The notes beneath the pieces are model-generated. The model had not been told where the DNA came from and did not search any database. It saw only the letters and a list, made by a program, of their open reading frames with translations. The position numbers and the translations under genes are program-made. Below, piece after piece: positions 27,557 to 37,501 of a DNA stretch of 64,000 nt (positions are counted from its first letter, which is position 1; the number at the start of each line of letters is the position of its first letter). Source of the stretch: Candidatus Omnitrophota bacterium (GTDB taxonomy: Bacteria > Omnitrophota > Gorgyraeia > JABMRG01); contig JBHPDT010000002.1 in NCBI GenBank assembly GCA_042577545.1, forward strand, positions 1,574 through 65,573. The letters run 5' to 3'.

Positions 27557-30500
27557 TCAGGCCGCAGCAGAAATAGCCTGATATGCCTTGCGAAGCTCTG
27601 CATGCTCAGCTAGTGGCAATCGCGACTCAACAGTTTGCGTTACTGCTACTGCAGCTCCTTCTTCCGGCAGATCTAGGTACTCAACAAGCCATGGGGCGTT
27701 GGTTTTCATAGTATCGAGCAATCCGTTAAAGTCGTTATCAAGACAGGCATTTTTAACTTTCTCTAATAATTCTTTTACTTCTCTATTGCGTCGCATATCA
27801 GCAACAAGCCTAGATAATCCCTTTGCATCATCATAAACCTGAAGATACCGCCTTCTATATCTTGTATAAGTTGTGTGTCGACCAAAGTAATATAACATCT
27901 GAAGATATGCCTTAATCGCTTTATCACTATGACGAGAGTCATATCTGTGCTCAATTATATTTCTTGCAGTATGAAAATGAATTCTCAAAATATCTCTTTC
28001 GCTGTATTGCTCTGAGAGAATCCTAACACCAGCATATTCAATAGATTCAATCAGAAAAGCTCCCCAGCCGCTTTGGTCAAGATATTCACGTATTGTAACC
28101 ATGGACTGTATCATTTGTTGAGTCAAAGCCGTTTCTTCAGTCTGACCCAATTTTTCAGGTGTCTTAACTATGAACAATAAATCAAAATCATGATCTGGCT
28201 CTAACAGGCACCAGCCGTCCTCCTCAAAAAGATATCTGCTGCTGCCAACAATCTGTGGTCTTATATCAAAATTTCCAGTAGACGCCATTTCAGTCATGTA
28301 CAATCTAACAATATCGGAAAGTAGTTTCTCAAACAGTGTAATATTTATCTTGCCATCCTTGATCAACGCCTCAGGATCTACCTCAATACTGTTAAAATCC
28401 AATCCAGCTGATGAGGCCTTGGGAGCTGCTGCAGCTTCATCTGGCAAGCCCAGTCCCTGCACAAGCCATGGGGCGTTAATTTTCATTTGTCGCAAAAGAC
28501 TATCATAATGCGAATCATCTAAAGACGAATTAAGAACACGCCCAGAAAGTTGTTTGATGTATGGATCGCGTCTCATCTTATGCGCAAGTTCCCACATTTG
28601 CGAAGGTTTGCCCCATGCATGAAAAAACTTCTTTCTATAGTCTTCATATTTTTTTCTCTGCTCTGTTGTGCCAAAATAGTACAATAACTGAATATAATTT
28701 TTTACAATCTTTATGATGTTCTTATCTGTGGCATCTAATTCTAAATTATTATAACACTTAAGAAAGTCTTGGATTGCAACTAGGTGAAATACTAAAACAT
28801 CCTTCTCACTAAATCGATCACCCATTATGTTAGCAAACTCTATAAAAGGAGTAAAATAAGCTTCCCATTCAGGTTGGCTAAAATAACCATCTATTGCCGC
28901 GGATAAGTCGACCCAAATTTGACTTAAATCCACACGCTTAGAATTTTTTACTACAAAAAATATCTCAATGTCATGCTTTGGCTCTAATAAGCACCAGCCA
29001 TCATACTCAAATAAATATCTACTACTACCTACAACCTTGACACTTACCTCGGCTCCACTCTTTGGAATCTCTTTCTTTACATATAGCATAGCTATATCAG
29101 ATAAGAGCTTCTCAAACAAAGCAATATTTATCTTCCCATCCTTGATCAATTCTTTGGGCTCTACCTCAATACTGCTAAAATCCAATCCGGCTGATGAGGG
29201 TTTTGATATCGACTTTCGATACGCGTCAAGCCACGCATAAACAGCACTTGGGTGGCCGGAGACAAAGGACTCTGTTAAACCACTTGGGTCAGATAATACC
29301 TCAGGTAGTATCGGAAACGCCTCTTCACCTTTATGATTAAGGCAGATACCGCCTGCCTTGGCTATGAAATAGTGAGCGCCTGCGTCAACTGCCTTTTGGC
29401 CACCAAAGACTAGGAGATGTGGAAATTTAAGACTAGAAAAGGTTCCACTTGCTGCGACACGCGCTCCATCAAACCATGTTGATTGCATATCCTCACCAAC
29501 ATTATCCATATTAATATAAGAAGCAAGTTCTTCTCGCCAATTAGGCTGTATCCATGGCCAGCCTCTATCTCTTGAGTCTTTTCTGCGAACAGTCTCAAGC
29601 GCAATACGAGCAGATTTTAGATCATCAATAGAAGCAACCTGTAAAGCCATACCATTAAGCGTTGTTGCTTCATCAAAAAGCATGGCCTCAAAAAGGGAGC
29701 CGGGCATGTCTTCGATTTTCGGGGCCCCTTCTATGTCATATTCTGGAGAATATCCAATCGTCATAACTGGCACGCCCTTATAATACAGGGCAAATCCTAT
29801 CATCCAGATGCGGCTCCATTCCGTACCATATCCTACATCTTGTCCAAGGCTTTTAAACTGATCTGATCCATCAATAGGATCCAATACTGTAGTCCAGGCG
29901 GAGACAGAAAAATTTTCGTTTTGTTCTCCTACAGCTAATGCCAAGCTCGGATCACCGATCTTTTCCTCAAACACAAGCCGTGTGCGCTTGATATGCTCCA
30001 TGAAAATAGGAAGAAGATTTGCTTGGGAATAGAGATCTCCCTTTGTCACAGGAGATCCATCAAGCTTCTCATCAGCTTCTATCATTTCAGCGTGGTTCTC
30101 ACGCAGATGTTTACCAACCTCAATTATTTTACCGCGAACAGCTTCTTTGATCTCGCGAAGCTCAGGTTCCACAATTTCACCCGACCGCAAACCTTCCCAG
30201 ATAATATTTTTGCATGGCTGATTCGCAAGCCACTTTGGTTCTGCACTATCAGCTCTTCCAGCTGATGAGGCCTTTTCAGCTTCTCTATCTTCTGCTGGAA
30301 GATTTAGCCCCTTCAGGAGCCATGGGGCGTTGGTTTTCATGATGTCAAGTAACCCGTTATAATCGTTATCAGCATCAGCACTTAAAACTCTCCTTAATAA
30401 TTCTGCTGCCTCTTTATTGCGCCGTAAATCAGCAACAAGTTTAGATAGCTCACTTGCATCATGATGGTTTCTCAGATAACGACCCTTGTATTCTGTATAA

Positions 30501-37501: not shown

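Follow-up and report, generated by a model that had tools for sequence, protein, structure and literature searches.

Short motifs in the inter-module linkers of a giant Omnitrophota protein as candidate polyprotein processing sites

In the MARTX and clostridial glucosylating toxins, unrelated enzyme modules are carried within one secreted protein and are freed by cuts in exposed linkers (PMC3153235). Here we describe a gene of Candidatus Omnitrophota bacterium that invites comparison with these and other precursor proteins. It lies at 27557..37501 on the minus strand of a 64,000-nucleotide stretch of contig JBHPDT010000002.1, the whole of which we call the window, and translates to a single intact open reading frame (ORF) of 3,314 aa, a modular multi-enzyme protein identical to NCBI MFC1806826.1, which is encoded on a 70-kb contig. 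Its modules are punctuated by a recurring six-residue motif, K-x-S-S-A-G. Judging from sequence comparison and predicted structure, we give a probability of about one half to the reading that these motifs are reiterated recognition sites for an endopeptidase acting in trans, and that the 3,314-aa product is a candidate bacterial multi-enzyme polyprotein.

The likeness to the MARTX toxins lies in the multi-enzyme modules and exposed linkers, and in these toxins the effector content varies between strains by module exchange. MARTX and glucosylating toxins are equipped with their own cysteine protease domain, which cuts after Leu, with RTX repeats and with a type I secretion signal. The giant protein differs in that a Pfam scan of its whole length (E<=0.1) revealed neither an internal protease (C80) nor RTX repeats, in the lineage-specific nature of its 5-6-residue motif and in its N-terminal Sec-like leader. 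Viral polyproteins share with the giant protein's family a short motif at the boundaries between unrelated enzymes, lineage-specific variants of that motif and occasional uncut fusions. Viral sites built around small residues include those of birnavirus VP4, (S/T)-x-A↓(S/A)-G (the arrow marks the cut), of alphavirus nsP2, with Gly at P2, and of poxviruses, A-G↓X. Unlike the viral precursors, the giant protein is encoded on a chromosome in a housekeeping neighbourhood (rpoD-dnaG, glnA), with no protease in the chain and no viral sequence similarity.

Cyanobactin precursors (PatE) carry cassettes flanked by conserved recognition sequences of near-identical nucleotide sequence behind an N-terminal leader, and are cut by proteases acting in trans; there the cassettes are peptides of 6-10 residues, whereas those considered here would be folded enzymes of 240-1,000 residues, and no maturation genes for ribosomally synthesised and post-translationally modified peptides lie nearby. 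The gingipains (RgpA/Kgp) cut themselves after Arg or Lys into a protease and adhesins and bear a C-terminal signal for type IX secretion. They resemble what we propose for the giant protein in being secreted precursors cut at repeated, defined sites into functional domains, but neither their self-cleavage nor their secretion signal is seen here. Within the same phylum, the Archaeovorins and Dockerin-type giant proteins reach 30,000-85,000 aa, with many transmembrane helices, a C39 or S8 peptidase and SecA-like regions (bioRxiv 10.1101/2023.11.21.568195). Like the protein considered here, they are very long and associated with membranes or secretion, and cleavage after translation has been proposed for them; the 3,314-aa protein lacks their domains and shows candidate cutting points. 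Homology to other giant proteins was confined to the methyltransferase (MTase) module, shared with one protein of 3,536 aa, and in the literature on bacterial polyproteins with linker motifs, on this motif and on this architecture, nothing comparable was found.

Exact copies of K-x-S-S-A-G begin at aa 211, 698, 1702, 2162, 2410, 2767 and 3028, that is, at 36854-36871, 35393-35410, 32381-32398, 31001-31018, 30257-30274, 29186-29203 and 28403-28420, all on the minus strand like every other feature of the gene. An earlier note on this DNA, made from the letters alone, had counted about eight motifs, and this is borne out as seven exact copies and one decayed copy, KALLSR-VDFNSIKVDV at aa 440, whose four amino-acid changes reflect point mutations (TCA->TTA twice, GCT->TCT and GGA->AGG). 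Composition alone predicts 0.005 copies of K.SSAG and 0.07 of SSAG in the giant protein; 20,000 shuffles of it never gave more than two SSAG, and the other real ORFs of the window contain none. All eight sites are module boundaries. They precede, in the order that the earlier note had listed, the MTase, nucleotidyltransferase-like (NTase-like) module 1, the repeat and helical region, the radical-SAM module (rSAM), NTase-like 2, the inositol-monophosphatase-like (IMPase-like) module, and NTase-like 3 and 4. The further claim that every domain boundary carries the motif does not extend to the one between the 31-aa repeat array and the subsequent helical region, where it is missing. Two types of site can be told apart, KA (AAGGCCTCATCAGCTGGA, in three identical copies), which marks the C-terminal ends of NTase-like modules, and KP, which marks the N-terminal ends of modules. 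At four sites the motif runs on into LDF(S/N)SIEV, and junction 3 has the full extended form although no NTase-like domain comes after it.

The most revealing comparison is with the relatives of the protein. A profile search with the repeated module against 1.84 billion cluster representatives returned six other proteins, P0003 to P0008. A scan of metagenome contigs with the NTase-like alignment gave one match, a 1.4-kb GOS contig corresponding to P0008; a word-indexed protein search with the ten-sequence NTase-like alignment gave none, and one with the whole giant protein returned itself and a single protein sharing the MTase. Three members are positional orthologs: P0005 (339 aa), P0004 (1,681 aa) and the window protein (3,314 aa) occupy the same locus, in the order PMT/TPR-CvpA-NIF3-DnaG-RpoD-gene, with glnA downstream in the window and at locus L008, while the P0004 contigs stop at the gene. 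RpoD of the P0004 and P0005 loci is 79-80% identical to that of the window, whereas the modules are merely 26-53% identical. Against this rapidly changing background, K-x-SS-[AS]-[GA] is found at the junctions of all three proteins. In P0004, GKTSSSG comes after the leader and GKASSSG ahead of the MTase, AKSSSSG separates the IMPase-like domain from a CheR-like MTase, and KASSAG leads into the NTase-like domain. P0005 consists of a leader, GKASSAA and an NTase-like domain, and P0008 has KPSSGG between MTase and NTase-like domain, the very position of the decayed copy in the window. JGI contigs with this dialect are Ga0117905_1005169 and Ga0118719_1009004.

Among the positional orthologs the motif also precedes domains that the window protein lacks, an N-terminal module without Pfam match and the CheR-like MTase, so that relatives do carry it at non-homologous junctions, where the earlier note had allowed that it might be missing. 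The blocks of homology between the giant protein and P0004, covering the MTase (47%) and the IMPase-like module (53%), stop 1-5 residues from motifs. The Pfam domains of P0003 and P0004 each lie wholly between consecutive motifs; as an example, a receiver domain begins 5 residues past ARFAE. An unbiased count of 4-mers gave the same picture, with the only ones occurring at least three times being those of the junctions (RFAE in P0003, SSSG in P0004, HFAE and SHFA in P0006).

P0003 and P0006 belong to a more distant lineage (GlnA 58-60% identical) and contain no SSAG. A second motif, [SAG]-[RHK]-F-A-E, occurs in its place, seven times in P0003 (1,182 aa) and four times in P0006 (886 aa). Ten kb downstream of P0006 is the start of another gene (L004:21960-22661, continuing past the locus), which encodes 5,075 aa and has Pfam matches of the glutamate-dehydrogenase family; the first 233 residues of its product comprise a leader, an LRP box (see below) and three RFAE motifs; a word-indexed protein search with these 233 residues gave no match. 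Across 45 kb (two contigs from one metagenome sample, JGI Ga0118719_1000089 and Ga0118719_1000474, in six frames) the 14 occurrences of [RHK]FAE are confined to these three proteins. Relative to the landmarks of the homologous NTase-like domain the two dialects are equivalent in position, since either motif precedes the conserved DGK(L/I)N by 9-17 residues and follows the conserved NAPWL by 12-14. The FAE dialect has no invariant Ser nor any other invariant modifiable residue. A short, exposed motif that is conserved on a fast background, and replaced by another motif at the same sites in several proteins, argues for recognition by a lineage-specific factor acting in trans.

The motifs are also placed at the two ends of the chain. 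In all eight family members the leader alignment displays a basic n-region, a hydrophobic stretch of 9-14 residues and a polar c-region, as judged by eye from the sequences against the usual features of a Sec-type signal peptide (basic n-region, h-region of 7-15 residues, polar c-region and small residues at -3/-1). The leader of the giant protein (aa 1-27; 37421..37501) has a basic n-region, a short hydrophobic LILVVSLLA and the c-region NQSAG. A box of the form (T/A)(L/F)-R-(P/A/V) follows, its Arg being the sole invariant residue of the eight leaders; in the giant protein this LRP box reads TLRPP (aa 36-40; 37382..37396), and aa 43-48 after it, AKSVQG, resemble a junction. Apart from the junction motif, the LRP box may itself serve as a further signal for recognition or sorting. 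The first junction motif lies 8-17 residues past it in five of the eight members, and the last FAE motif lies 15-16 residues before the stop in P0003 and P0006. Motifs so close to the leader at one end and to a short tail at the other would fit removal of both. Conserved C-terminal tails, which may be C-terminal signals or removable pieces, end in LRKAYQAISAAA in the window protein (within 27560-27670), in SRLLKAISSSA and NRLLQAIASKA in P0004 and P0005, and in the latter two a junction-like EPKSVAGP stands ahead of the tail.

An AlphaFold model of aa 2120-2460, built from a ten-sequence alignment (pLDDT 73), predicts that the motif is exposed in an inter-domain linker. Within the model, pLDDT drops below 50 at a single internal stretch, A2161-A2166 (AKPSSA; model residues 42-47), and the next motif, that of junction 5, falls in the disordered tail after the domain. 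LDFSSIEV is modelled with higher confidence and seems to pack onto the following domain. Burial of the motif as the first strand or helix of the next domain, which the earlier note had raised as the result that would speak against it, is not what the model suggests. Together with its presence in relatives, the predicted exposure supports the core of that note, namely that the motif is a functional junction signal rather than a relic of duplication.

Why might such a signal be read by an endopeptidase? Processing sites of a polyprotein, one of two roles suggested beforehand, fits best because there is one copy per boundary, one after the leader and one before the tail, and because single sites decay (aa 440) or vanish (P0004); what the comparison supplies is the junction signal, and cleavage is deduced from it rather than observed. 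In the scheme we favour, K-x-S-S-[AS]-[GA] would be a short linear signal in the exposed inter-module linkers of a rare, leader-bearing multi-enzyme family, and the chain would be cut at the motifs by an endopeptidase devoted to this task, with its gene in another part of the genome. The leader would be removed first, and about eight pieces would then be released: the N-terminal domain, MTase with NTase-like 1, the repeat protein, rSAM, NTase-like 2, the IMPase-like module, NTase-like 3 and NTase-like 4. MTase and NTase-like 1 would stay together because their junction has decayed. The second lineage would employ [SAG]-[RHK]-F-A-E for the same purpose. Superimposed on the Ala that they have in common, the two dialects would each place a small residue at P4 and Ala or Ser at P1, which hints, speculatively, at a cut after Ala ([small]-S-S-A↓G or [small]-[RHK]-F-A↓E). 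Peptidases with a Ser-Lys dyad that cleave after Ala include LexA (A↓G), signal peptidase and birnavirus VP4. That recognition leads to cleavage, that the enzyme acts in trans, which bond is cut and that the modules act in another compartment or cell are all steps that we infer. Three known mechanisms were considered and rejected: classical type I signal peptidase could act on S-S-A↓G and not on H-F-A↓E; autoproteolysis of the Nup98 type (HF↓S) would find no nucleophile after F in HFAE; and a sortase or exosortase sorting signal would call for a transmembrane segment and basic tail after the motif, which are missing.

Several points weigh against this scheme. The support for cleavage is entirely computational, and peptidase genes were found neither in the giant protein nor in the 64-kb window nor in the flanks of five related loci, these being partial genomes. 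The two dialects have little in common, so that a shared enzyme family is a conjecture. A leader with no junction motif is seen in P0007 and at the start of P0008. A profile scan of the genome contigs of 185,579 GTDB species representatives found no relatives of the NTase-like module, and so small a family, as far as sequence searches define it, limits the generality of the pattern. Finally, domains of cytoplasmic type (rSAM, receiver, glutamate dehydrogenase) behind a Sec-like leader are hard to explain without delivery to another cell.

Among the alternatives, the one that survives best, and which we consider unlikely rather than implausible, is that the motif is recognised in trans and left uncut, serving as a docking site for a secretion adaptor, chaperone, scaffold or modifying enzyme while the protein works as one chain. 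The comparative evidence set out above (conservation of the peptide, the switch of dialect, exposed linkers) speaks for recognition as such and not for cleavage itself, and the lack of a protease nearby sits easily with docking. A copy at each boundary, after the leader and before the short tail is, however, the pattern of processing sites, and a modifying enzyme would find no invariant modifiable residue in the FAE dialect. Loss of single sites is also tolerated, as at aa 440 and at a deleted site of P0004, where TKP is joined directly to TWLANQP and the window protein reads KASSAGRADSAEPKWLANQP; this is easily understood if the sole effect of a loss is that two modules stay fused.

Less probable still is that the motif is a historical seam, a functionless peptide encoded by a linker that was copied with each recombined module and has been kept alike by gene conversion. 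This reading draws on the nucleotide sequence of the window gene, in which the codons of the motif are nearly fixed. Serine is encoded by TCA at 13 of 14 positions, against a TCA usage of 24%; position 2 is CCC at all three KP sites and GCC at all three KA sites, the three KA copies being identical over 18 nt; and the Leu codon is TTG at four of four. Identical residues share codons at a frequency of 0.67-1.0 in motifs and 0.43-0.69 in module bodies. The near-identical nucleotide stretch that had been described at four sites is a 36-nt string that is exact at two of them, with 2 mismatches at a third and 4 in the copy before rSAM (repeat family D3 comprises four copies of 56 nt at 79-82%). Junctions 4 and 6 have an exact run of about 40 nt in common although their modules, the two most divergent NTase-like copies, are merely 39% identical, and one and the same 51-nt element flanks rSAM at either end, resembling an insertion at a seam.

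Within the window gene, the 40-nt identity points to local gene conversion or recent copying. Across orthologs the picture is different: P0004 encodes its motifs with TCA TCT TCT GGT, TCT TCT TCA GGT and TCT TCT GCA GGA, compared with TCA TCA GCN GGA in the window, and its four copies differ among themselves. Since orthologs encode the same peptide with different codons, selection acts on the peptide and not on the DNA. Further evidence against a mere seam is that the adjoining linker residues are not conserved and that three proteins of another lineage have a different motif at the same positions. Of the two processes invoked beforehand, gene conversion or strong selection, both appear to operate, at different levels, with selection on the peptide across orthologs and local copying within the gene; recombination at the seam probably does happen, as a consequence of the conserved signal. 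A nucleotide- or RNA-level signal or recombinase site was rejected on the same codon differences, which extend to the paralogous P0004 sites, as were internal translation starts, for no conserved Met or start context follows the junctions.

Autoprocessing in cis, in which the N-terminal domain (aa 49-210; 36872..37357) would be a papain/C39-like cysteine peptidase cutting after A-G, is improbable. The leader sites of C39 peptidases end in GG or GA, and SSAG ends in a comparable pair of small residues. The domain has a DCG...H arrangement, with its single Cys, in D-C-G, just before a predicted helix, and C39-like domains are reported in other giant proteins of Omnitrophota (bioRxiv 10.1101/2023.11.21.568195). 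It nevertheless matches nothing in Pfam (E<=1), in NCBIfam or among PDB sequences, its single-sequence AlphaFold model is unusable (pLDDT 42), and no relatives of it were detected. Nor did a Peptidase_C39 domain turn up in the chain or in an ABC transporter gene beside it, the neighbouring genes of 588 and 590 aa encoding RpoD and DnaG. Whereas SSAG, SSSG and SSGG have small-Gly endings, the FAE dialect ends in A-E and is not a site of the double-glycine type (GG, GA or GS at P2-P1). The domain is absent from every motif-bearing relative, namely P0004, P0005 and P0008, which share the motif, and the FAE-dialect proteins, and for this reason it cannot be the general processing enzyme; the peptidase role suggested for it in the earlier note is not upheld. 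The second role which that note had offered, phosphopantetheine attachment at carrier-protein-like Ser linked to the CysQ/IMPase-like domain, is highly improbable and is rejected: GLDFSSIEV bears a loose likeness to GxDS(L/I) and an IMPase-family domain is present, but there is no PP-binding family (PF00550) among the Pfam matches, the model shows no four-helix bundle, and one of about 80 aa would not fit, as the conserved core of the next domain begins 10-16 residues past the motif. Three of the seven sites and all relatives lack LDFSS (P0004 KASSAG-TDVTYQ, P0008 KPSSGG-RIPIES), and no Ser is conserved in the FAE dialect.

The modules delimited by the motifs are, in order, as follows. Junction 1 (KSSSAG, aa 211-216), the equivalent of which in P0004 precedes the same MTase, leads into a SAM-dependent methyltransferase module (aa 217-439; 36185..36853) matched by Pfam Methyltransf_11 (31.3 bits; cut-off 21.2) and aligning with residues 480-691 of P0004. 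The decayed junction, KALLSR-VDFNSIKV (aa 440-453; 36143..36184), which is intact in P0008, separates it from the degenerate NTase-like module 1 (aa 446-697; 35411..36166). After junction 2 (KASSAG, aa 698-703; KA type) comes a segment of aa 704-1701 (32399..35392), made up of a linker region, a tandem array in which a 31-aa repeat recurs 17.6 times (33339-34966), and a stretch of helical character. The repeat has a 93-nt unit with 79% identity and the consensus HIAxILQSSRKQDEIEKLIxSLKxxGIREGA, and its sole Pfam match is weak and mTERF-like.

Junction 3 (KPSSAG-LDFSSIEVDVD, aa 1702-1718; 32348..32398) opens the radical-SAM-type module (aa 1708-2161; 31019..32380), an assignment based on the CxxxCxxC cluster motif, present as CNLNCRSC, and on a domain-model match above its cut-off (Pfam Fer4_12, 34.2 bits; cut-off 22), with further sub-threshold matches to radical-SAM NCBIfam models. 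The link between its C terminus and NTase-like module 2 reads KPSSAGLDFSSIEVDVD and includes junction 4 (KPSSAG-LDFSSIEVDVD, aa 2162-2178; 30968..31018), the site of the low-confidence stretch in the AlphaFold model. NTase-like module 2 (aa 2168-2409; 30275..31000), likewise covered by that model, ends at junction 5 (KASSAG, aa 2410-2415), beyond which lies the inositol-monophosphatase-like module (aa 2416-2766; 29204..30256). Its Pfam Inositol_P score of 26.6 bits is just under the cut-off of 27, and its counterpart, residues 690-1035 of P0004, scores 32.7 bits. Junction 6 (KPSSAG-LDFSSIEV, aa 2767-2780; 29162..29203), equivalent to the P0004 site after its own IMPase-like module, NTase-like module 3 (aa 2773-3027; 28421..29185), junction 7 (KASSAG-LDFNSIEV, aa 3028-3041; 28379..28420) and NTase-like module 4 with the conserved tail (27560..28402) complete the chain.

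The MTase module has a wider distribution. It occurs with 40% identity, ending in a conserved ATKP, in the 3,536-aa protein P0002 (L010:8285-18895) of a Planctomycetia-labelled metagenome-assembled genome, a protein with transmembrane segments that has no LRP leader and no junction motif. This indicates that the module moves between large proteins of different architecture. A scan of genome contigs with the MTase alignment returned only the P0002 locus and a weak match in Weeksellaceae.

As to the most frequent module, the repetition described in the earlier note is real, while the nucleotidyltransferase name that was given to it is weakly supported. We looked for the signature of the Pol-beta-type nucleotidyltransferase superfamily, hG[GS] with [DE]h[DE]h on an alpha/beta core that leads into a helical domain. 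Across the ten aligned sequences G-S hardly varies, and eight of them have D-x-D/E, P0004 and P0005 reading N/S-F-D instead. The module has no match in Pfam, NCBIfam, PADLOC or PDB sequences, and Foldseek gave no match below E 0.29. A link to phage defence was considered and rejected. In P0007 (L009:224-1849), a member with the leader and no junction motif, the NTase-like domain is fused to a 2H-phosphodiesterase domain (PF08975, 23.1 bits), a pairing that hints at a 2',5'- or cyclic-phosphate-linked product.

The NTase-like gene adjoins or nears a glutamine synthetase gene in three genomes (window 22124-27557, L008:10001-12519 and L004:8101-12661), and the nitrogen-assimilation genes of the window comprise GOGAT (16951..21534), two glnA, amt, P-II and gdh. 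This neighbourhood raises the question of whether glutamine synthetase or P-II is a target of the NTase-like module, as in the case of GlnE and GlnD; no link in sequence was found. The giant gene is followed immediately, on its own strand, by an ECF-type sigma-70 family gene (26422-26934 (-); TIGR02937, 43.8 bits). Between rpoD and the giant gene lies an IS110-family transposase (37992-39044 (-); DEDD_Tnp_IS110 and Transposase_20), a position taken in the orthologous loci L002, L008 and L012 by a small gene for an LMWPc phosphatase. The P0004 locus is represented by three independent assemblies (L002, L003 and L012), all of which end within a few bases of the stop codon of the gene, which suggests a repeat or strain-variable region directly downstream. 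An 841-aa ORF elsewhere in the window (5987-8512 (-)) has no Pfam or NCBIfam match.

Whether the very long proteins of Omnitrophota and other uncultivated bacteria act as single chains or are cut is open, and no cleavage points are known (bioRxiv 10.1101/2023.11.21.568195). The motifs described here are the first concrete, sequence-searchable candidate cutting points in a giant bacterial protein. Our broader proposal, which we advance tentatively, is that a small Omnitrophota-related clade exports multi-enzyme polyproteins, combining a leader and LRP box with NTase-like, MTase, rSAM, IMPase-like, CheR-like, receiver and glutamate dehydrogenase modules, and that these are cut by a protease at a lineage-specific code of 5-6 residues. 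Recombination at the code itself would add, remove and rearrange modules, which fits the finding of proteins of 339, 1,681 and 3,314 aa at one locus, and the products may constitute a metabolic or signalling effector cocktail for a host cell. A host-dependent lifestyle has been proposed for Omnitrophota (PMC10066038), and we infer that delivery to another cell would fit it. Should cleavage not be confirmed, the motif would still be a lineage-specific linear signal. If the proposal is true, it would provide a simple rule for dividing giant ORFs into units for the prediction of structure and function, and would represent a virus-like polyprotein strategy applied to ordinary enzymes in a cellular organism.

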